From the NCBI GenBank assembly GCA_000182565.2, contig KQ257452.1: 64,000 bases of DNA. The stretch is one strand, 5' to 3'. The notes under the pieces are model-generated. The model was not told the DNA's origin. It was given only the letters and a program-made list of their open reading frames with translations, and searched no databases. This document shows positions 4,262 to 42,557 of the stretch, in pieces. Both the position numbers and the translations under genes were made by a program. Positions within the stretch are counted from its first letter, which is position 1. Each line of letters starts with the position of its first letter. This stretch comes from Spizellomyces punctatus DAOM BR117 (lineage: Eukaryota).

Positions 4262-5081
4262 GGAATATAACTCTGGGGTTGTACATAGGAGAGTTATACG
4301 TACGTGAGGACGATCTTTGACCTCGAGGATTTATTTATTCCGTTTCTACTTCGGATGTATCATTTGTTTAATCTGCTTGTGATGCCGACACATAGCACTG
4401 AATGCTTGTTGCGCCATGATGCGGTTTGGTCATTTGTCTATTGCACATGTACTGTCAACCGTGCTAATAAGTGCGAAAATCATGCCTGTCTGAGACCCTG
4501 ATAAGAGCTCTTTGGCTGAATAATCTGTCCGGCGCCAGTTTACCAAATATTCGACTTCGCCCATTGACAGGTGTTAATAGTTAGAGTTTTAACCATGAGC
4601 CTCAATATGAATTCCGTTTGCTAGATGTGTCAGCGTGCCGGGGTGCATGACCCCACAATGCCCCTCTGTAGCATTGTCCCACTCCGACTGTAGGAGCCTG
4701 AGGTTAGAATTATGAGCACTGCCGCTTCAAACAAACGTCAGAGTGAACATGAACATGTTGCCTTTCAACTGTATGAGCATATTTCTGGGCTGCGATGGGT
4801 CTCCGGTGGGCTGAGGTTGCTTACCGGTGACAGTCCCAATCGATATCATCTCTGGTCTCCTCCTTTGCCATAAGTTGGCCGCTTGAAGGGACCTAGTATC
4901 TCCCTTGCCTCCTTCCGAAATCCACACCGCCCAGGAACTCCTGGAGCTCCAACAGCTTCGGTATAAAAACCGGGTGTGATTTGACCTCCGTCCTTCCATA
5001 TCCTCACCAACTACACAATGCCCGCCACAAACCTCAAACACTCAAAATCCTTCCCACTTCAATACCAATACTCAAATCAAG

Positions 5082-5450
5082 ATGACACCCTTCGCTCTCC
5101 TCACCTTCCTCCTCACCACCACATTCGCCGTCTCCACAAACGCCCAATTCTTCACCCCCCAAATCCCTCAAGCCCTCGTCACGCTCGCAGACGGAGACGT
5201 ACAGCTTCTCGGAGACGGCGGCGTCAACATGGAGGGGTGCTTCACCATCATCGACCAAGTCGGCATCGTCAGCGCTGAGGTTACGACTGCGGGTACCGCG
5301 CTGTTCTTTTATACGGCCGAGGAATGTGTCAGGGCCACGAGGATCTTCGTGATGCTTCGGGAGCAAGCGGAGTTTGGGAACCCGCTTTTGGCGAGGAGCG
5401 TCAGGATTGTTAGCCTAGATATGATGGGAGGCATGATGGGCCGTGGATGA
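5082..5450 (+). CDS. Small secreted protein (122 aa) of unknown function
   Basis: Signal-peptide-like N-terminus MTPFALLTFLLTTTFAVSTNA, two cysteines, TATAAAA at about 4962 and a single exon. Confidence 0.7.
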   Translation: MTPFALLTFLLTTTFAVSTNAQFFTPQIPQALVTLADGDVQLLGDGGVNMEGCFTIIDQVGIVSAEVTTAGTALFFYTAEECVRATRIFVMLREQAEFGNPLLARSVRIVSLDMMGGMMGRG

Positions 5451-5491
5451 TGGGCCGTGCAATGATGGGCCGTGGGATGACGGGACGCACT
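5421..5491 (+). repeat. Short tandem repeat, about 15-bp unit ATGATGGGCCGTGGG (MMGRG)
   Basis: Five imperfect units visible across the stop codon of the secreted protein. Confidence 0.8.
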
Positions 5492-6013
5492 ATGCCACTC
5501 CCCTTCTAGGTGTCATAATGTGTTGTCATCTCGATGATGGAGTGGATTTTCAGGTGGTTCGCATAGTGGGAGTGGGTACAATATAATATATAGGCACGGA
5601 GGGATAGGTTTTCAGGTTCTTTGTTGTGTGCTTAATATTTTGGAGTGGTCATGGCAATATCAATATATTGATGGGTTGATTTTACATGGTGGACTTCAAC
5701 ATTAAACCGCTCGAGCAGCCCAAAATGAAAACTGGTAAAATCCTTCTACGAAACGGTCCGACAGTAGCACACCTCATTGTGTGCTGCCTTTCAACTTCGG
5801 ACTTGCAAAGCAGGAGGCTTAGTTAGGCGATTGTTGGTCAGCGTGACATAAACAACACAAGCCACAATCTGTATAAGAATAACTGCCAACTCCGGAGCTA
5901 AAAAGAGCTGCCTGATTCATCTCCACTCCCTGATCGCCTGCTTTCTGTTCCGTGATCTCAGATTTCTGCGTCCTTATACCCCGGTTCGAGAAGCATCCTT
6001 TCTATCAAACAGA

Positions 6014-23857: not shown

Positions 23858-25416
23858 CTATGGTGCGCGGCTCCGACCAGCAATGAATTTTGCCAGCTTG
23901 TTCTTCGCATATACAAATGCCCGACCGAGCCCAGCCGTAAACACTCCTTTGATCGACTGGGTGATTGCCGGACGTCTTACAATGTCTGCCAAACCTACAA
24001 GATACCACACCTTTGTGAGAAACAAGCTGTTGCTATATTGTACGGAATAAACAACATACTTTTTTCTATATATCGGGGCAATTCGGGCGATGAGACTACA
24101 GAGGCAGACAGCTCTGGCTCTTGTATGTCTAGCTGCCTTATTTTCTCCGTACGGGAAATGTACCACCGGTGATAATTCTGCACCAATGCATTCATGTGCT
24201 TGGGTAGTTTCTGAACCAGCGACGCCCGTAGTCTCACGTTGTAGTCTTGCTATATCGTATCGAGAGTCGTTCGTCAGCTCCAAACCTCGATCTAGACCTT
24301 AACTAGCATAAACACCTACCTCTATGGTTCCATCAGGTAGGTAGTTCGCATTTGGCAGATCCTCTACAATGGGCTTGTATATCTCTCGAAAAGCGTCCAT
24401 CTGAGTGTATACTATGTTGTAAATTTTATGAGGGTTCTCCCCAAAGCGCATACGGAAATCCCCTGCAGCAGCCGTATTCAATGTGTGAAGAAGACGGGAC
24501 TGTAAATATCACCGATTACCTTTATATGACAGTCCTGCAATCGTGGTAAATAGTTCTTCTTCAGTAAAGTGCTGGGGGAGAAGCAGCAAAGCTGTGCGCA
24601 CGGCCGTTCGAAGGTTTTTACGATTTGCGAGGCTGACTCGGGCATCATCTCGCAATACTTTGACCTTTTGCAGGCTCGCTCTTCAGTAAGAGTATCGGTG
24701 GCAAGCGTTCTAGATACAGACAATATACGTACGGGTTTCTGCAGACGTCCAGCCAGATACAAGGTTTCCCATTCCATTAAATCTCGGATGAGGCGATCCA
24801 TTGATACTACACCATACTTGATCCTCTGCAATAATCAGAGCGCCAGATAAGTAACCTGAGAAACCACAAAAGGACCCGCATTACCCACCATCCCTCCCAC
24901 ATGTACGTCTGGATTAAAATACACGCCGGCTCCTACTCGCTCCTGCACCTTCGATACAACATTGCTCCCCAGGTATGCTAACGCAGAATAATGGTGACGA
25001 TTTTGTCGAATATTTAGCGAATGCCAGTGCTCCGGATGAGTGACACCGAATATAAAATCAACCATTGGTGCATCCTGCTCATCGTGAGTGGACGTCTTCA
25101 AAAGCTACGAGGCTGCAGCTCCTACCTTCGCGCCCACACTGGTCTGCTTGTATCCTTTCTGCCGAAAGACGCCTGAGCCATAAGCAACCGCGTATCTCAC
25201 TGGTGCATTAAAGTCTGCTAGAACTGCGTGTAGTTTTTCATCAAGTTCAGGATGGGAGGCCGTGCTGGTTTCTCGGAGTACATGACTTGCGTGATATCGC
25301 CTCGATGCAATTATAAGACATGAGCAACGTCCGCGTGCAGTAGTGCCGTGTGACAATCCCTGCAAAAGGTCCCGTTTCACTCCAGCAACAGTCGACTTTC
25401 TACAGAAGACGTTCAT
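23858..25416 (-). CDS. TAM41: Mitochondrial phosphatidate cytidylyltransferase Tam41/Mmp37
   Basis: VRYAVAYGSGVFRQ, MVDFIFGVTHPEHWHSLN, IKYGVVS...WETLYLAGRLQKPV, GDFRMRFGENPHKIYNIV and QSIKGVFTAG. Confidence 0.95.
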
Positions 25417-26147
25417 GTTTCCGCGATGACACTCTGCTTGAACACTGTGGGGTCGTCATTCCATTCTCACAGCCTGTCACATGACATATCACGTGGTGGG
25501 CATATTCATCTCAGGTCTAGCGTATATTAACCTACTTTGGCAAAATGTTTGGTAGTAACATCAACACCCGGCGTGGCTTTACAACCAGGGTGAAATCAAG
25601 GCTACGCCTTCTCCATGCAGGATGAACTAGATGCAGATCATGGAATGAGTTTCTTTTCCGAACCTCGTCAGGGCAATGATTTGTTCTTGACGAGCGTGAT
25701 ATTTTTGACCCGACACTAGGTAGAAATGTAGAATAGCGGTCAGGATGACGCGTAAGTAGTACATAGCTTCTGCTGTTTTCCATTTTCATTCCACAAAGCC
25801 CGTCCTATATGAACTTGGTCGGCTTTTGAAACCGACTTGCGAGTTTCAATGCCTGACTTGAGAAGCCTTCCAACCTTCACACGGGGCATGCATATCGCTC
25901 CTCAGCGTTTATGTGTGAAGATAGAGGCCAATTGCGGTAAAGGGCATTTATTCCAAACAGAAAAGCTACGGTGCCTCATCAAGAGCCCTGGCATTCTTTT
26001 GTGTACACCAAGATCATAGAAGCGTAGGTACCGTAATAAGTCCATGCTGAAAATAGGCGTATGAGCCAATCAAAATGTATTCTCGTCGGCAAAGCAATCC
26101 ACAGATTCTAAATTAAGTTAAACCCAATATCCGTAAGCTCCGACATA

Positions 26148-26854
26148 GTGTGGAGGTGCTTGAAAATGGCACTAAGACCCATTATTATCCGGATAATCCG
26201 GTTAATCATATCGCATAATCAGCACCCCCATCTATTGCTCAAAGTGGTGTGGCATGCATATAATGTTTTTTTTTTTAAACTGCAGTGAGGCACATGCCAA
26301 AGGTCTATAAAAGGGGGCCTTTTGCTGTCTCTCCCCTTCCTCACCAGCTCCTCGACTCTCAAACCATCTGCGCAACACTCATCACGACCCACATTGCGAC
26401 TCAGTCAACCATGAGAATGCAGATGTGGTGGTGCCGAGGACCTCGCCCTCCTGACTACAACCAACTGGAACCAGCAGCAACCACTCGGAACCAACAAAGC
26501 TGCTATTATACTGCCACATTAGTTGAGCTTGGTTGGTATGTACCAACAGCATTTCTTTTCATTCTGTCATTCATCTTGCTGACATGCAGTTTTTTATAGT
26601 CTCCAAGCCTTGTCACTGAAGATCCTCCAGCTTGTGAGTCTCCCCAATGTTGCGAAGACTCTGGCTTCAATGCCATCAAGAGTTCTGGATCAAGGCCTAA
26701 GGGATCGCGTGTGGTAGTGGGCAATTATCCGGTTAGAACCAATTGTTACTGTATAATTGCCCAGTAGTAGTTAGTTAGTTAGCTTTTCCGAACCGGTTGT
26801 CGCCAGTTTATTCCCTGGTGTAGTAGCTAGTGCCAGTTTCTGTCACCTCTACTC
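26148..26854 (+). mobile_element. Non-autonomous TIR element (707 bp), Fanzor 'ghost'-type locus, copy 1
   Basis: Imperfect 27-bp TIRs (GTGTGGAGGTGCTTGAAAATGGCACTA versus reverse-complemented GAGTAGAGGTGACAGAAACTGGCACTA). Preceded by CATA (26144-26147) and followed by TA (26855-26856). Homologous in inverted orientation to 30708-31467. Confidence 0.85.
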
Positions 26855-26871
26855 TATAAATGTCTCCCATG
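26782..26871 (+). ncRNA. Putative Fanzor omegaRNA: 75-nt scaffold 26782-26856 plus about 15-nt flank-derived guide TAAATGTCTCCCATG
   Basis: Scaffold is 73/75 identical to copy 2, overlaps the 3' TIR and has hairpin potential. It resembles the S. punctatus Fanzor1 omegaRNA as I recall it (TTTTCCGA.CCGGTTGTCGC...TCCCTGGTG....GCTAGTGCCA...CACTA). The guide length is assumed from the published system. Confidence 0.75.
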
Positions 26872-27920
26872 ACGCGTAGGTATAATTCCAAGATCTTTAA
26901 TTTTGCAAATGGAAAGTTCCAAACGTGCTGATTGTCTGCTACAGAAGCCTCGTTTGACTTTCTGGCAATGCCACAGCTAGCGACCATTGCAAGTAAACAG
27001 CAGTCTACACAGAACACAATACCTCACGCCGCGTTTATGTTGCCACTGATGCCACAATTCCTTGCGTCCCGGCTATAGGAAGTCCTTGATATGCAATTGG
27101 GTCTCTTCGCAGTTGAGGGCCGGAGAATAGGGTACCGTCAAGTTGCGACTGTTACTTCGGCTGGTCTAGGTATGGGAGTATACCATTCGTCTACCCCTAC
27201 TTACGCCCCGTTATGATACTTACGCAACACCCATCAATATACTGTTCCGCTAGTCATGAGCGAGTGCCCTCGCCGTTATATATGAGTCCCTCATAGGTTA
27301 CCAGTGTCGCGACCGACTCGTCCCGCTCTGCATGCAATTTCCCAAGTCTCTTAACTCTCTGTGGAAACTCCTAATTACTTGAACTGTCCCCTATGCTAAT
27401 CAGCTTCCTTTCGTGCAATAAAGGTCTCCAACTCTTAGATTCGGAAAGTGGCATATTATTTCATTTTCTTCGAGTATGGAACAGGTTTAAGTGATAGTAA
27501 TTCCGACTATATTAGTGTGCAGGACATGGATAATGTCACCTGGTTTTAGTGGTTTAAATGAAAGGAATAAATGCGATTAACCACCCCGACTGCGCATTGA
27601 TTACGTAGTCATGTAATTGCTGCTACTATGGCAACATCGGACGCAATTGGAGAGTCTGTCATAAGGTCATTCATTGCACACCGAGTTCCCTGGACGAAGG
27701 GACGACTAAATGCAACAAAATCTTGAGCCTGCCGACATAGTGCCGCGCCTCACGTCTACGGATTTACCTGACTTGTTATACTGTGGTGAAAGGTCGTTAT
27801 CTTGGCTGTGCGAAGGCACAAGCGAGTTGAACACAATCTTGCGCTCGTTGTTGAAGTAAGAGCTTTTGACTTGCGTCTGTGACGTTCAAAACTTATTCCA
27901 ATCAATTGTAGCACTCGTCA

Positions 27921-29246
27921 ATGTTACCTTCCAAACCCCAGGGAATACTATCAGCAACCGTTCCGGCCACGTCTTCTTTAGACCGTTTACGACGTGATAG
28001 CAGCATTGTTCCCGAGCCTTCTATCGCAACTCGCATTGCTGAACCTAGCGCTCCTGGAAACCCATGTGGTACCTCTCTTGACGGCGGTATTTCAGGTGGC
28101 GGAGTCTACGATTTTCGGGCCTATCCTTCATCCCAGACACATTTACCTCCCGAAAACGTTTACGATTCTAGTTTGGTGCACGGGACAACGTTCAATGCGA
28201 TAGCATTCGGGGCTTCCTTGGTAGCCGCGGTTCCGCGACGGGAGAGGGCGATATTACAGAACCAATTGGCCACCGCGCGACTCATGTATCATCGGGAGCT
28301 CTACCCCCGAATGTTCACCCAAGAGAGGCACATCCTCTAGCCAACTGTGCGGAAGTTCTGGCAGTGGCAGCAACGTGCCACCCAGCATCTCGTCTTTTTC
28401 TCAAAACTTGGATCAGAAACTCCCGACGTCGCAGACCGGTACCGCATTACATTCCCAAGGAGTTCTGTCGGGATTGCCATCAGATGTGCCATCACCTCGT
28501 GTGGCAGGGTCCAGTTGCGGAGATCTGGGACAGGTCCATTTTTCGCTCATGGAGGCGTTCGCAAATGAGGCTCCTGGCATGACCTTTCGTTCCTGGGAAA
28601 GGGATGATTTCGAAGATATCTACGAAGACATACCGTTCCTTCGTCGTCATTGTATTATCCCGCTCCCATCGACGGATGATTGTCTGTTATTGCTAGACGA
28701 GAGTGGTCGGTTTTTGATGTATATCCTTGATATGTCGGTAGTGTATCTAGTTGGGAACAATCTGGAGGAAGGGTGGCGAAGGTTCCTCGAAGGTTCGCAG
28801 GGAAGATGGTCTTTGGTTCTCAACCGAATGGATTCGGACACTGGCTGTCTCTTGAACGACGCCGCCGGCATGAACGTAGGGATAACAACCCTGGTTTTAA
28901 CTCCCAGTCATTATCCAACGGATGCCGAGGTTATGGCTCACGTGGCAGAAAGCATCCAGGAAATGCCCTTCGTTTCCGAAAAAACGATTGCCACCCAGAA
29001 AGCATGTGCCCTTCTGGAGTCCGTCAACCTCCGAGATTATGTTACCATTTCTCTCGCCGTCTCAAACACAGGGTGCGTATTTCATGCCATGCAATCTGGT
29101 CGTGTCTGACTGACTTTTCTCTTCGGTCTTCGAGCAGGTTAGTCGAGATTTCGGGACTGTGGAAGAAAACAAATGATGAAGAACAGGTGCAGAAGCTCTT
29201 GCAAACGTATGGGCAAAATCGGTTAGGGCTAGTGGGATTAGAGTAG
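27921..29246 (+). CDS. Transposon cargo gene: Ser-rich N-terminus, SUKH/US22-like domain and short alpha/beta C-terminal domain; 5' structure uncertain
   Basis: Main ORF 28375-29109 contains LLLLDESGRFLMYILDMSVVYLVGNNLEEGWRRFLEG. A clean intron at 29073-29137 (GTGCGT...CTGAC...CAG) joins in frame to LVEISGLWKKTNDEEQVQKLLQTY...*. The link to upstream ORF 27921-28340 is unresolved. Confidence 0.55.
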
Positions 29247-29316
29247 ATTTATTCCCAATAAAGTCACCGTCAACGAAGGTTCATAAACGCTACGGCAGCT
29301 AATATATAGGAATACA

Positions 29317-30384
29317 CTACAAACTGATATGTGGATACACTGCTCTGAAAGCCCTCTCAGTGCCTCGCTCTCGAAAATAACCTTCAAATTGTTCACGACC
29401 TATCCTACTAGCAGCAGATTGCAAGTCTCTGATCAATTCGGCCTCCGTTCGGGGACGTTGTTCCGAGCAAGCTACACTCGTAGTGTACAGATTCCGCAGA
29501 TGCGTCTTCAGAGTTCCAAATACCAGTTCGACCGGATTATACATTTCTCCTCGTGGGGGTAAGAAGACAACTTGGCATCCTTTGTCTTCTATAAGTCGTC
29601 GAACGCCAGGATTGAAGTGCTGCTTTGAAGGGTTCACACAACGTCCCGCTTTACCCGAACGATCCCAGATGACCACTTCATTCGGGCGTAAATTCGGAAC
29701 CAAATTTTGCCATACATAATGGTAGAAGTTTAGGTCATTAGCCGCTTCTGCGTCAACGATCGGTGGATGAACCAATCCGTCTTCCCTGATCGCAAGATAT
29801 ATTGTCCATCGCTTTCCATGCCTGGAACGCTCCCGTGATATAGGGCATCCCTGTACGCTACGACCTCGTCCCGGAGCCTCGTTGTCATATATAAAGCTCT
29901 CATCCATGTAGACTCGCCGCGACATTGGGATGGTTCTCATTAATGCGCAATAATCCTTGACAAGCTGGAAGGATTCCTCCGAAGAATAGGTCTCTTGTTC
30001 GTCACTGAATAACTTGCGCGTGAACTTCGCTCTTTTCAAGTACTGTGAAACAGTCCTTGGACTGATCCTGTTGTCGAACAAACGAGCAGCTTGCAGGTTT
30101 GTCAATCCAGGATTCTTTCTAAACTCTGATAGAAGACGAAGTTGATCGTCTTCGGTAAGCTTGAAGTCAGGTCCCTTCTTCTTCAGTGGACGAAGGTCGT
30201 GGGTTTCTTCCCATTGTTTTTTCCACCGAAATAGAGTTCTACGGTTGACTTTAAAAGTGGAACATACTGCAGCAGCTGTTGAGTTTCTGAGAGCTTTAAC
30301 AGCAGAGATGCGGGTCTCTAGGCTCCTATGCTTATTGCGAGTATGCTGGATAAGTTCTTTCGAAAGTGAACTGTTTTCGACCAT
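29317..30384 (-). CDS. IS630/Tc1-like DDE transposase (about 355 aa from MVENSS), uninterrupted
   Basis: Two HTH regions (VNRRTLFRWKKQW, ISPRTVSQYLKR) and catalytic VYMDES, VIWDR and FLPPRGEMYNPVELVFGTLK. Confidence 0.93.
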   Translation of the reverse strand: MVENSSLSKELIQHTRNKHRSLETRISAVKALRNSTAAAVCSTFKVNRRTLFRWKKQWEETHDLRPLKKKGPDFKLTEDDQLRLLSEFRKNPGLTNLQAARLFDNRISPRTVSQYLKRAKFTRKLFSDEQETYSSEESFQLVKDYCALMRTIPMSRRVYMDESFIYDNEAPGRGRSVQGCPISRERSRHGKRWTIYLAIREDGLVHPPIVDAEAANDLNFYHYVWQNLVPNLRPNEVVIWDRSGKAGRCVNPSKQHFNPGVRRLIEDKGCQVVFLPPRGEMYNPVELVFGTLKTHLRNLYTTSVACSEQRPRTEAELIRDLQSAASRIGREQFEGYFRERGTERAFRAVYPHISL

Positions 30385-30537
30385 CGAGACGGGAAAGAAA
30401 ATGAATCTCCTCAATTGTGACTCGAAGTGGATGGGGAGTTCATAGACTAAATGTGAAAGTGCCACTTTCAGCATTCCGAAACAATTGAACCATTGAGGTT
30501 GGATACAACCAGTGACATTATCCATATCCTGCACACT

Positions 30538-30685
30538 TATTATTTAATTAAAAATGAGCACACCTCTAGGTACGGCGTTACTTACTGCATCTCAAACAAG
30601 GAAGCAGAGACTATCCTTTCCAAATTCAAGGAATTCAAGGCATGGATCGAACGCACCACGGACAAGAAAATACGCATTAAAAATG
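30538..30685 (+). pseudogene. Ty1/copia integrase (rve) fragment
   Basis: YYLIKNEHTSRYGVTYCISNKEAETILSKFKEFKAWIERTTDKKIRI matches the copia integrase segment that precedes the RSDNGGE motif, which is missing here. Confidence 0.7.
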
Positions 30686-30690
30686 AGTTT

Positions 30691-30780
30691 GCGTTCTTGG
30701 CTTGTTAGTGTAGAGGTGACAGAAACTGGCACTAGCTACTACACCAGGGAATAAACCGGCGACAACCGGTTCGGAAAAGC
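30691..30780 (-). ncRNA. Putative Fanzor omegaRNA: 75-nt scaffold 30780-30706 plus about 15-nt flank-derived guide ACAAGCCAAGAACGC
   Basis: Scaffold GCTTTTCCGAACCGGTTGTCGCCGGTTTATTCCCTGGTGTAGTAGCTAGTGCCAGTTTCTGTCACCTCTACACTA has perfect AACCGG/CCGGTT and GTGTAG/CTACAC pairings. Confidence 0.78.
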
Positions 30781-31467
30781 TAAGCTACTACTAGGCAATT
30801 ATACACGCAATACGTAACAGTTGGTTCTAACCGGATAATTGCCCACCACCACACGCGGTCCCTACTAGGCCTTGATCTGGAACTCTTGATGGCATTGAAG
30901 CCACACTCTTGCATCCAGGAGCGAATCGACTGGGCAGCGTCACAAGCTGGGGGATGTTCAGTGACAAGGCTTGGAGACTAGAGAAAAAAACTGCATGTCA
31001 GAAGATGACCCGATGACAAGAAATGCAAGAAATGCCATTGATACATACCAACCAAGCTCAACTAATGTGGCAGCATAATAGTAGGTTTTGGTATCGGATC
31101 CGATCGGTTGCCGCTGGTTCTGATCACGGTTGCTGTCGGGCGGTCGAGGTCCTCGACACCACCACATCGGCGTTCTCATGGTTGACCGAGTCACGATGAG
31201 GTTGCAATGTGGGTCGCTATGAGGTTGCAACGTGGGTCGCAATGAGCGTTGCGCAGATGCTTGTGAGTTGAGGGATAAAGAGGAAAGAGGGAAGAGGGAG
31301 CAGGTCCCCTTTTATAGACCTTCGGCATGTGCCTCACCGCAGTTTAAAAAAAAAAACATTACAATACATGCCACACTGCTTTGAGCAATAGATGGGGGTG
31401 CGATATGATTAACCGGATTAATCCGGATAATAATGGGTCCTAGTGCCATTTTCACTCGCCTCCACAC
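30708..31467 (-). mobile_element. Non-autonomous TIR element (760 bp), Fanzor 'ghost'-type locus, copy 2
   Basis: 28-bp TIRs with 23/28 match. TA at 30706-30707 and TATG (reverse complement CATA) at 31468-31471. Internal 23-bp tandem duplication at about 31195-31240 that is absent from copy 1. Confidence 0.87.
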
Positions 31468-31966
31468 TATGTGCTCTGAGGTAAGTACGGGTACGCATGA
31501 AATATTTACGGTCGTTAAACAGACGTGCTACGAATTTCTAACCCGAGTTTCTTTAATATCGCAATAGCTTGCATTCGGGTTTCCAACGTAGTTTGCTTCT
31601 TCTTCAGGATATTACAATTTGAGGAGACAGCTTGTGTTTGTAACAAAAATGCCAGGCATTATGGTCAGGCAATCAGCGCTTCAAAACTGCAAGATGGTTG
31701 GAAGGGCATATAAATTATTAAGGATCGTGTCTGCCGCTATGCACTGGATGTAGATCGGCAGAAGTATCGGACAAAACAATGGGTACCAAGTCGGCTATTA
31801 GTCACGTGATATTGTAGTGGCTGGCATCTTGATATGTGCTCCCGCCCGCCCACACCATTATGCCTAATGATCTTGCCCGCTAAAAAACAGTTCCTGTGTC
31901 CCAACTCTGTGTGCTCTACTGCCGCACCGTCAATTCAGGTGCGGAGATTGTCAAATTTCGATAGTC

Positions 31967-33811
31967 ATGGTGAGCTTTTCTGGTGAGTTGTAAGACGCAT
32001 TCTGATGCTATGTACTGGTGGACTCTTCTCACTCTGGTTGCAGCGCCAGGTGCGCTACCACACTCTTCCCTTGCGAAAACTGTTTGGCTCTGGTGTGCAA
32101 GACTCTTTCATTGGTGAAAGATGCTAGTGGGGAAGATCTGGCGACGCGTAGTTCAATCTTGAATGAGCGGAAAACGAGTTTGGAAAGTGTAGGCACAAGG
32201 TGTAAATCTTGTGGGTTCTTCAATGTCACGGATGCCAAGGCCAGGCAAATATGCGGTCTCCCTGTCCACCCGGCCAAAATCGATGGCTCAGAAATGGTAC
32301 GACCCCCTGTACTTATCTGATATTGAGCCAAAGTGGCATCTAACCATGAACAAGTTGGCATTCGAAAAAGAGATTGATGACCGAGGATATGTGGCCAACC
32401 AGATCAGTCTATGCCACGAAATCAAGCACATTCTAGCGACAAGAGGTGATTTTACTCCCTTCCGTGAAAAAGCTCAAGGGACAGGCGGCTAATCCGATGC
32501 GGTAGGAAATGCGCTGCATGAGGGAATCCTTGAACCACTTGGCCCAGAAGCAACCGAAATGCCAGTGGAACCTTCCGACAAAGACCCGGAACGGATTCCG
32601 ATGGCCCCAGCTCCTTCTCTTAGTGCGAGTGGGCTCGCCAGGGCAACCTCTCACACTGAGAGTGAATGTTGTCAGACCAATGTTGTCTCGTCCATACTGT
32701 CCAGTACCGACCTGAAGCATGCTGGAAATCAAGCATCATTACAGCTGTCTGTAGCTCCCCAACCCACAGGCAGAAAGAAAAATCGCAGACGGAAACGGGT
32801 TGCCAAAAACGCCAAACAGGCCACTGTAGACCAGAGTGGTGCTGCTCCCTGTCAACCGGACCATACTGAATGCCGAGCTCCGGGTATGTGTCAAAAAATT
32901 CAAGCTCAGCCAACGTGCCCTTCTTCCGATGCTACAACAGAACTGGCATCACATGCCCTCTCTCGAAAGCGTACATCACATGAGTATGACGAGACAGATG
33001 GTCCTAAGTCCAAAAGAGCAAAACTCAACAATACAGTGCCCCAGCCAGACGTGACCTCGGGAACTTCCTCACAACCAGTGCGTGCAACTAGCGTTCCTCT
33101 CACAAGCTCAGCTGGTCTCCGCATGGCGACGATGTCAGATCGAGAACTGGAAAAGCGGCTCTTCGAGTGCAGAAATCATCTCACTTGGCTACACAAAAGA
33201 CTAGATGTGGTTGCAGCAACGCGGAGAAACTGGGGCGAGCGGGCGTTTACACGATGGGATTATGAGGTGACCTCAAAAGTTCAATTATTTAATAGCCGGA
33301 AGTGCCTCTCACCAATATCTCGAAACTAGCTACTAGAGTTATCTTATAAGCATAGTAACAGCCCTATTTCCAGAAATGCGAAGGTGAAGCAAGGCTCCCC
33401 ATATCCTCTCCGGCTATGTGCGGTTGTCTAATTTTAATCACATCCATCCAGGCTCTGCTTTTGCTTGCTCGTTCACTAACGGGCTCACCGCACCCAATCT
33501 GTGGTTCACGGGAGGAGATGCTCTGTGCGGGAATGAGTCTCGAACAAACGACCAACAGTGTGGAACCAGTTGCCATAATTCTGAATACAGCGTATCGGTC
33601 TTCCGTCAACACCTTCAAAAAGGATTCTTTACCGTTTATGCGAGGACTAGGGATTTTGAACGAAGAGCTGAATGAAGTCTATGACTCACTCTTGTTCGAA
33701 GCACATGAGGTCATTGACCGATATAGCACTCCTTCGGATGAGCCAAAACAACTTTCATTCACAAATTTCAGTGACCGCGCAAATCGGCCTTCATTGAATA
33801 TGCAGTGGTGA
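31967..33811 (+). pseudogene. Uncharacterised, probably degenerate gene (Cys-rich N-terminus, low-complexity middle, helical C-terminus)
   Basis: Successive + ORFs 32018-32320, 32211-32492, 32559-33329 and 33416-33811 are joined only through a frame change and an in-frame TAA (32490-32492). No recognisable family. Confidence 0.35.
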
Positions 33812-35152: not shown

Positions 35153-35486
35153 CGCGCACTTGTGCACTATGGAACCGCGCAATAGATGGTCGTAAAGCCT
35201 ATCATACAATCCTGCCAGAAGTGCAAGACGGTCAACGGGACAAGAGCTTACCGAAGCGACGTATCACGTGCTCTATATGACCCATGCAAACAACTTTACG
35301 TACTTGATACTATACTTATCATTGACGCCTCGCCAATACATTTCTCGCCGGCTTTCCTGCGCACCTTTCGTACCTTGGATGATGACAATTACAAGATAAA
35401 TGCCAAAGGACGATTATATACACGGTTTGGTGTTTGAGGAAGTCAGTATAAGATATATGATCTTCAGGATTCCGCCAAATGCATCG

Positions 35487-35558
35487 GGGCCTATGGTCTA
35501 GTGGTACGATTCCCGCTTTGGGTGCGGGAGGTCCTGGGTTCGAACCCCAGTAGGCCCC
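35487..35558 (+). tRNA. tRNA-Pro (UGG)
   Basis: Acceptor stem GGGCCTA/TAGGCCC, D-loop TGGTCTAGTGG, anticodon arm CCCGC-TTTGGGT-GCGGG, T-loop GGTTCGAACC and a downstream T-run. Confidence 0.97.
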
Positions 35559-35707
35559 TTTGAATAGCTTCCAGTAGTGTTTTTTAATTCAACTTTTGGG
35601 TATGCGCGAATATTGCCCATCTTACTTGCACGTGAGGAATAGTGGAGTGTCAGCTCACACGACGATATCGGACGGGCAGCTTGTCCTTTGCTCACCTTCC
35701 GCTTCGA

Positions 35708-41559: not shown

Positions 41560-41860
41560 CCGGGCAGTAAGATCGGCTGTTTGTACATGTATAGTATGGC
41601 AGACATCTAATTTTCAGCTGCTGATGTTTGTACCTTATATTTGAATTGTAAATTTGTGCTTTTGTACGCTATGATGCTATGATGAATAATTTGACTAGTC
41701 TATGAGTGAATTCGACCCTGGTCGCTGCCGCTGGACGGCGGCCCCTCGAGCAGCTGGCATTTGATTAACCAGCCGACCGCAAGGAACAGCATGAGAGGTG
41801 TTCTGAAGAAGACTCCTTTACGATCATATACATGTATACAAAGAAACTTGATTTTCGTCG

Positions 41861-41932
41861 GGGCCTATGGTCTAGTGGTACGATTCCCGCTTTGGGTGCG
41901 GGAGGTCCTGGGTTCGAACCCCAGTAGGCCCC
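41861..41932 (+). tRNA. tRNA-Pro (UGG), identical to 35487-35558
   Basis: Same 72-nt cloverleaf sequence. Confidence 0.97.
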
Positions 41933-42557
41933 TTCTTACAGGGAGACATACATTTTTGGTATCCTTGCTCGGATCTCGCGCGATGGATGGATTTACCAAT
42001 CTTCTTGGGGCCAGAATGTAATTCGATGTGCCTGGAAATCCGTGCTGGGGTAGGGGACCTTATTTTACGGTGGCATATGCTGAGAACAGACATACATTTA
42101 ATCTCTGGGTTTCTTGACGACAATATGATCATTACGTTATGAACAAAAACCTCTGCCTTTCGAAAAGTACTATCATGCAGCTCGCATTGTACATGGCATG
42201 GTGCAGTCAGTGGTATGCAACACATGGTATTGAAGATAACATGTGGCCATTCGATAGGCCTACACGGCACACGTTCTTTCCTTCTGCCTTTCTGCTTCCT
42301 TTTCTTTTCGCTAGTTTTGCTGGTAGTGATGCAGTAAGAAGTTCCTCCTTGAATTCACATCTAGTGAACCTGGAAACAGCATTTCCGTTGAGAATGCCCT
42401 CCAACCTGTGTATCGTTTGAATGTCAGCAATGGATAAGCAACAGACCCAACAACTGATCGACATTGTCGCGTGTGTCACGTGTTAATACCAGGGCTAGCA
42501 GTGACAGCGCACAACGATCAGAGCCATCCGCAACACACAAAAGTGCAATCAGCCGCC

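Follow-up and report, generated by a model that had tools for sequence, protein, structure and literature searches.

Two published ghost Spu-1 loci of Spizellomyces punctatus: a guide-RNA expression cassette and a neighboring candidate transposase

Introduction

In a stretch of 64,000 nucleotides (nt) of contig KQ257452.1 from the chytrid Spizellomyces punctatus DAOM BR117 (assembly GCA_000182565.2), hereinafter the window, two short inverted elements lie on either side of a larger transposon that encodes a transposase. The locus raises a twofold question: are the short elements guide-only loci that serve a Fanzor nuclease encoded elsewhere in the genome, and do they form, jointly with the transposon between them, a complete module for mobilization and guiding? 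Both were put forward, the module as a possibility, in an original prediction made from the nucleotide sequence alone.

The framework for an answer is available in the text and supplementary data of Saito et al. (2023; PMC10432273), which report 42 Fanzor loci and 134 ghost Spu-1 loci in this organism. As described there, a ghost Spu-1 element has a conserved interior of about 550 nt with 30-nt inverted repeats on each side, a conserved CA upstream of the 5′ (left) repeat and a CATA target-adjacent motif, and its right end resembles the SpuFz1 omegaRNA, with a 75-nt scaffold followed by a guide of 14–15 nt derived from the flank. The 75-nt scaffolds of four ghost loci, together with SpuFz1, are reported to produce indels at CATA-flanked targets in human HEK293FT cells (PMC10432273). 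The same text states that the inverted repeats of the Fanzor type and of the ghost type differ at 7 positions, and that its authors found no transposase flanked by Spu-1 repeats. Thus, the prior knowledge that the original prediction brought to the locus, namely the CATA motif of the S. punctatus Fanzor, the flank-derived guide and the existence of ghost loci without an open reading frame (ORF), is stated in that source.

Results

Both short elements are published ghost Spu-1 loci

The two short elements (copies A and B; Table 1) both occur, with every base the same, in the list of ghost Spu-1 loci that accompanies Saito et al. (2023). In PMC10432273, supplementary file 7 contains two records labeled 'NW_015971539.83 - ghost', the end features of which are those given in Table 1; the lengths of these records and their spacing exactly equal those of the window copies, and one of the records quotes, as trimmed flank, the window sequence from 27297 on. 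The guide string of copy A had no matches in the supplements, probably due to line breaks, and this locus was identified by its flank and coordinates. The scaffold of copy B is identical to that of another ghost locus in file 7 and matches the published Ghost4 scaffold, by eye, at 73 of 74 positions (one nucleotide off), and that of copy A matches Ghost4 at 71 of 74 (three off).

The two copies, inverted relative to each other, belong to one element type by alignment within the window. They are identical in 598 of 693 ungapped aligned columns (86%), or 598 of 782 when gaps are counted, and are best kept at the ends, where 45 of the first 50 and 31 of the last 32 columns agree. The 3′-terminal 74 nt are shared at 72 positions, and one more shared base yields the 73 of 75 that had been claimed for this segment. 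Each copy has terminal inverted repeats of about 30 nt (30 nt, 83% complementary, in copy B) and TA flanks on both sides, and ACATA stands ahead of the left end in both. The structural description that we set out to follow up (two inverted elements of 707 and 760 bp, each with its own repeats of about 28 bp, a TA duplication and CATA immediately 5′, with conserved termini and interiors differing by substitutions and indels) is therefore borne out by these comparisons. A search for a right-end 25-mer returned exactly two sites in the window (0 expected from 100 shuffles), and a third ghost copy was not found by blastn within the 64 kb.

The window also agrees with the claim that it holds no visible TnpB or Fanzor RuvC ORF. 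Pfam detected no Fanzor/TnpB domain (RuvC or OrfB zinc-ribbon) in 150 of the 161 six-frame ORFs of at least 90 amino acids (aa), nor in two of the 11 others that were also scanned; the longest stop-to-stop frame, at 408 aa, is too short to accommodate the 638-aa SpuFz1. The ORFs within the two ghosts had no Pfam match.

Given that both loci are in the published ghost list, with near-identical scaffolds and CATA ahead of the element, the proposal that they are guide-only OMEGA loci that load a Fanzor encoded elsewhere is correct as to their class: copies A and B are almost certainly independent, fairly old insertions of the published non-autonomous ghost Spu-1 element, which carry a guide RNA only and would serve a SpuFz1 encoded elsewhere. 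Since the knowledge behind the proposal was drawn from Saito et al. (2023), this is a case of recognition, not of discovery; the elements and the loci are already published, and there is no novelty in kind.

Table 1. Coordinates of the ghost elements, their predicted parts and the central transposon in the window
Feature	Position	Strand	Remarks
Ghost Spu-1 copy A	26146-26856	+	711 nt with both TA, 707 without; equals NW_015971539:530173-530883
Ghost Spu-1 copy B	30706-31469	-	764 nt with both TA, 760 without; equals NW_015971539:534733-535496
CATA 5′ of copy A	26144-26147	+	CA plus flanking TA; from sequence; equals the SpuFz1 target-adjacent motif
CATA 5′ of copy B	31468-31471	-	TATG on the + strand; from sequence
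Left inverted repeat, copy A	26146-26175	+	Published end feature 530173-530201 (PMC10432273)
Right inverted repeat, copy A	26827-26856	+	Overlaps omegaRNA scaffold; published end feature 530854-530883 (PMC10432273)
End features, copy B			Published 534733-534762 and 535467-535496 (PMC10432273)
TATA box TATAAAAG, copy A	26306-26313	+	Conserved in both copies
TATA box, copy B	31309-31316	-	Conserved counterpart of that of copy A
Intron, copy A	26536-26599	+	64 nt, GTATGT...TATAG; joint 26534->26599 (cut +1); 171 X22 reads, 2 X5 contigs
Intron, copy B	30978-31048	-	71 nt; joint 30977->31049, CT..AC on the + strand; 225 X22 reads, 1 X24 contig
omegaRNA scaffold, copy A	26783-26856	+	74 nt; overlaps right inverted repeat; two private changes (see text)
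Predicted guide, copy A	26857-26871	+	15 nt; position from the scaffold and guide architecture described in PMC10432273
omegaRNA scaffold, copy B	30706-30779	-	74 nt; family consensus kept
Predicted guide, copy B	30691-30705	-	15 nt; flank directly 3′ of scaffold
Tc1/mariner-IS630-type transposon between the ghosts	27513-30540	-	29-nt terminal repeats, 93% complementary
Terminal repeats of central transposon	27513-27540 and 30512-30540
Transposase ORF	29317-30384	-	355 aa, HTH_23 and DDE_3; Met at 30384 aligns with the starts of relatives
Passenger gene SPPG_01875	27682-29246	+	210 aa; introns 27856-27911 and 29073-29137; coding sequence 28549-29072 and 29138-29246

The ghost transcription unit

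How a locus without a protein might supply a guide is suggested by four sequencing runs that were aligned to positions 25900-31700 and from which reads were accepted at a likeness of at least 95%: X22 (raw RNA reads), X5 and X24 (contigs) and X1 (DNA-like). X22 consists of 60-nt reads that are sense-stranded and 3′-biased, and is not a small-RNA library; its sense assignment is given by the + strand gene SPPG_01875, which is covered only by reads with the first mate on the + strand.

In X22, reads in the omegaRNA orientation cover both ghosts and reach bin depths as high as 595 in copy A and 22163 in copy B. In copy A, the sense depth is 0–3 at 26284/26292 and then 105–355 across 26419-26505, and this rise between 26292 and 26419 places the start of the transcript downstream of the TATA box TATAAAAG. 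Further downstream, both copies contain a short intron with spliced reads and contigs across the joint (Table 1). At the other end of the unit, 266 sense reads cover the first guide position of copy B (30705) and 164 of them carry the window base, which indicates that some transcripts continue beyond the right repeat and into the flank. Taken together, the conserved TATA box and the spliced intron suggest that the guide RNA lies at the 3′ end of a transcript that starts from the element's own promoter. Neither 'intron' nor 'TATA' occurs in the main text of PMC10432273, its figures and one supplementary PDF lying outside this search, and a TATA box or an intron in ghost elements was not found described in the full-text literature searched; the ghost expression cassette appears to be undescribed in that main text.

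The spliced ghost transcripts hold ORFs of 80 aa (copy A) and 94 aa (copy B). A conserved ghost protein was considered and is unlikely: in a comparison by eye with a third published copy, exon 2 of copy A shows four amino-acid-changing changes and one silent change, and the copy A ORF also has a frameshift near its end. Separately, sense reads number 67–150 at the listed positions over the first ~120 nt of copy A (26150-26276) and end before a run of 11 T (26266-26276), where the sense depth is 0–3; at 26159, each of the 114 reads derives from other ghost copies, and these left-end reads look like a separate short family transcript.

The predicted fold of the copy B scaffold comprises two hairpins (-23.4 kcal/mol, z -3.5). 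The copy A scaffold has two private changes, G-to-A at position 23 (26805) in the first stem and A-to-T at position 71 (26853) near the end. Beyond their own loci, no extra targets of the two predicted guides were found in the window, and matches with 3 mismatches are at chance level.

Several points weigh against the view of A and B as guide-only loci in service of SpuFz1. The comparison of the scaffolds with the published Ghost1-4 was made from the supplement text with no alignment tool, and an Rfam E-value scan of 25000-32500 gave 0 matches and is uninformative. The predicted minimum-energy fold of copy A (-16.3 kcal/mol, z -1.9) is without the first hairpin of copy B. The many alternative letters in the reads indicate that most of the depth comes from other copies of the ghost family; the reads over the ghosts are not provably from loci A and B, and the copy A base at 26159 is carried by none of the 114 X22 reads there. 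Furthermore, neither a discrete RNA of 88–90 nt nor a pile-up of molecule ends is listed in X22, a non-small-RNA library, and the depth drops steeply across the copy B scaffold, from 22163 to 1408 in the next bin.

Some of these points also speak for a reading in which one or both copies are decayed miniature transposons that no longer give a usable guide RNA. The private scaffold changes of copy A and its altered predicted fold, the lack of the copy A base at 26159 and the 14% divergence between A and B are all in line with such decay. Speaking against it, the copy B scaffold is shared with another published ghost locus and is a single nucleotide away from a tested one; moreover, the private bases of copy A are carried by some X22 reads (171 of 939 at 26805 and 34 of 138 at 26853), and the majority of the reads at the first guide position of copy B match the window. 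We therefore regard inert relics as an unlikely explanation for the pair and retain the view of A and B as guide-only loci, with the qualification that the guide function of copy A may be impaired, given that its private changes disturb the predicted first hairpin.

The central transposon and its transposase

Between the two ghosts lies a Tc1/mariner-IS630-type transposon (Table 1). TA stands directly ahead of its left end. On the right side, the dinucleotide in register is TT, or TA if one extra base is counted. The product of the transposase ORF is matched in Pfam by DDE_3 (E 1.6e-12) and, at the N-terminus, by the helix-turn-helix domain HTH_23 (E 4e-9), and aligns end to end with nine relatives at 43–70% identity. 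The putative catalytic residues D161, D241 and E286 are located within the conserved motifs YMDESF, IWDR and NP(I/V)E, which are invariant or near-invariant among the 10 sequences. Sense reads of X22 reach a depth of 103–141 at the 3′ end of the ORF, and most of the ORF also lies within an X5 contig of 2609 nt; the transposase looks intact and transcribed. In X1, the contig depth is 2–4.5 inside the central element, 2.6–2.9 in the unique flanks and 14–139 in parts of the ghosts, so that the central element is single-copy at 95% likeness. Among the 5 organism-named relatives of the transposase within the 40 database matches listed, S. punctatus is not represented, and the gene appears to be absent from the reference annotation.

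Within the terminal repeats of this transposon, and convergent with the transposase, we observed the passenger gene SPPG_01875. Its transcript is represented by the 2609-nt X5 contig with two GT..AG joints, and its product and SPPG_01875 of S. punctatus DAOM BR117, the sole database match, are identical throughout (100%). It is an orphan with no relatives besides its own record; Pfam gives only a sub-threshold SUKH-3 match, and it has no similarity (E 3.1) to the ORF that follows the closest metagenomic transposase.

As to the surroundings, the neighbors are ordinary genes, with the end of Tam41 at ~25455, and thus the ghost elements sit in one intergenic gap. Farther along the window, two tRNA-Pro(TGG) genes are found on the + strand, at 35486-35559 and 41860-41933, 6.4 kb apart.

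Ends of the central transposon compared with the ghost repeats

The original prediction described the transposon as related to the ghosts through its terminal repeats, and this part of its claim stood. When the 28-nt left end of the ghost was slid over 127,944 window positions, the four ghost ends scored 22–28 and the next best positions were both ends of the central element, at 20 of 28, with all other positions at 19 or less. By this comparison of sequences, the ends of the central element are related to the ghost inverted repeats. They differ from the ghost end at 8 of the 28 positions (about a quarter), a distance of the same order as the 7 positions given for Fanzor-type versus ghost-type repeats in the text of PMC10432273. 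Beyond the ends, blastn within the window revealed no similarity between the central element and the ghosts.

Metagenomic relatives of the transposase provide a wider view of such ends. Of 50 loci retrieved, 8 longer ones (L001-L007 and L009) were examined. A clear terminal repeat pair starting with TAGTGT is present only in L005 and L006, which contain the same element; in L001, L002, L007 and L009, the stretch upstream of the ORF contains only a TAGTG motif resembling a left end (in L001, 21 of 28 positions match the inner end), and in L003 and L004 neither terminal repeats nor the TAGTG motif were seen. The TAGTG-bearing ends adjoin transposase relatives of 40–61% identity. The start TAGTG, being shared across these relatives, seems to mark the transposase clade, and the Spu-1 repeats fit this mark. 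No Fanzor-like ORF was noticed among the ORFs seen in L001 or L005.

Two of the metagenomic elements deserve description in their own right. The element at 1150-4856 of L005 (the same in L006) spans 3.7 kb, comes from an AT-rich organism, has terminal repeats starting TAGTGTTGGGG, and encodes a 44%-identical transposase along with opposite-strand ORFs that resemble membrane proteins; relatives of the central transposon thus also carry passenger genes. In L002, a 61%-identical transposase is followed, after ~800 nt, by a 1.3-kb element (4400-5716), the 40-nt terminal repeats of which begin with TAGTGG. This element is possibly a non-autonomous relative; inspection by eye revealed no scaffold-like 3′ end in it.

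These observations bear on the transposase that moves Spu-1. Because the text of PMC10432273 reports none within the Spu-1 repeats, no later assignment was found in the full-text literature searched, and the ends are related, the 355-aa DDE_3 protein becomes a candidate. We tentatively put forward, as a possibility that we would not call probable, that it is the missing trans-acting transposase for the whole Spu-1 family, Fanzor-bearing and ghost alike. On balance, it seems rather probable that the central transposon is only a distant cousin, with ends that are alike by common descent, and that Spu-1 and the ghosts are moved by some other transposase or by none that is still alive. The mismatch at 8 of the 28 end positions, the lack of likeness beyond the ends, and the single-copy depth of the central element with no near-identical paralogue all point in this direction; furthermore, TAGTG ends that are common to transposases of only 40–61% identity constitute a broad family mark and not the signature of a specific partner. 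The candidate nevertheless draws support from the fact that Fanzor-type and ghost-type repeats, which presumably share one transposase, are themselves 7 positions apart according to the text of PMC10432273, from the rank of the inner ends, which in their likeness to the ghost repeat are surpassed in the window by the four ghost ends alone, from the conserved D, D and E motifs over a full-length transposase, and from the absence of S. punctatus among the five organism-named relatives in the 40 listed.

Discussion

If copies A and B are guide-only elements, as we believe, a mode of operation can be proposed. Each ghost unit would comprise its own TATA box, a first exon, a short spliced intron, a second exon and then the 74-nt scaffold at the right repeat, and transcription through the right end would add 14–15 nt of flank as the guide. 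SpuFz1 produced from Fanzor-bearing Spu-1 copies elsewhere would bind the ghost RNA and cut CATA plus guide, which would be the same site without the element, since the CA and TA ahead of the left end imply that the empty site reads CATA followed by the guide. The occupied site, which has ACTA (copy B) or TCTA (copy A) before the guide sequence, would escape cutting. Cutting of the empty site would probably favor retention and persistence of the element, a benefit that has been proposed for TnpB as well. Under this scheme, loci A and B themselves would be expected to yield loaded ribonucleoproteins. The elements would presumably move through the action of a TA-targeting DDE transposase in trans, for which the neighboring DDE_3 gene is a candidate.

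The remaining part of the original prediction, a complete mobilization and guide module in which the three elements act together, found no direct support. It would imply that ghost A, the transposase element and ghost B, 5.3 kb in all, act as one, such that the transposase moves Spu-1 elements and, in a two-cut homing, the guides cut the empty sites at both flanks and repair then copies the segment in full. There is an appeal to this notion: the outer ends of the pair are both left repeats, inverted, alike over 52 nt at 92%, and accompanied by TA and CATA; both predicted guides point inward, into the central segment; the central ends are apparently related to the ghost repeats, and the transposase looks intact and transcribed. 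Moreover, the distances between the ghosts and the only copy of the central transposon that is visible at 95% likeness are 656 and 165 nt, which, by rough arithmetic with 176 Spu-1 loci, is unlikely under uniform placement. Against this, the two ghosts differ at 14% of the ungapped aligned positions and by many indels, and hence are not a recent matched pair. The arrangement is unrepeated, with the 21-mer of the inner end occurring once in all searchable supplements, in the record of copy A, and the central element is at single-copy depth. Furthermore, at least 11 ghost records on the 1.9-Mb scaffold NW_015971539 are among the matches listed (30 of 42 places), and from these 0.3–0.5 pairs less than 5 kb apart are expected by chance (rough arithmetic). 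It is common for transposons to accumulate in the same gaps between genes, and the nearness would be explained by such accumulation in a tolerant gap or by a shared preference for TA sites. We consider the trio very improbable as a functional module; the specific version in which two inward guides home the segment with the transposase gene, as a two-cut homing cassette, appears more improbable still. Accordingly, we return to the view of A and B as two independent insertions of ghost Spu-1.

Comparison with known systems places these insertions firmly. Measured against ghost Spu-1 as described in the text and supplementary data of Saito et al. (2023; PMC10432273), the window loci are the same in the 30-nt repeats, the CA, the interior, the 74-nt right-end scaffold and the lack of a Fanzor ORF, and there is no difference in kind; what is added here is the TATA box, the spliced intron and the private scaffold changes of copy A. 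With the Fanzor-bearing Spu-1 (also SPu-1) elements, as described by Bao and Jurka (2013; PMC3627910) and in PMC10432273, the ghosts share TA flanks, repeats of ~30–33 nt that begin with TAGTG, the right-end scaffold and the left CA plus TA. Those elements, however, are ~2.1 kb long and encode a Fanzor of 633–638 aa, in contrast to the window ghosts of 711 and 764 nt without Fanzor (PMC3627910, PMC10432273), their repeats differ from those of the ghosts at the 7 positions already mentioned, and the second stem of the scaffold is different in the ghosts (PMC10432273).

Two further systems offer partial parallels. In the first of these, which is closest to the proposed movement in trans, the rice Stowaway elements are moved by Osmar, a Tc1/mariner relative: they are short and non-autonomous, and have TA flanks and ends like those of the transposase element, with unlike interiors. 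The ghosts differ in that their cargo is a guide-RNA cassette, and the partnership with the central transposase is suggested by the 20 of 28 identity of the ends. The other parallel is with bacteria, in which Meers and colleagues, in 2023, reportedly described TnpB-driven homing, and in which IS200/IS605 derivatives with only a guide RNA are said to take their guide from the flank, to have the motif rebuilt at the empty site and to rely on a nuclease from another copy. Unlike these single-strand HUH elements, the ghosts belong to a cut-and-paste, TA-targeting eukaryotic transposon, and they have a TATA box and an intron.

The present analysis is, in the main, a re-identification of a published element class at two published loci, and nothing in it is new in kind. 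It does provide two modest new leads, namely an intron-containing expression cassette in the ghosts and one specific candidate for the transposase. Part of the difficulty in explaining what Fanzor does biologically lies in the want of a transposase linked to Spu-1, and the central transposon offers a candidate with apparently related ends, catalytic motifs and transcription. The TATA box and the intron upstream of the guide RNA suggest a way in which hundreds of copies that encode no protein could continue to supply guides, and the ghost cassette would constitute a native expression cassette for the study of this process.

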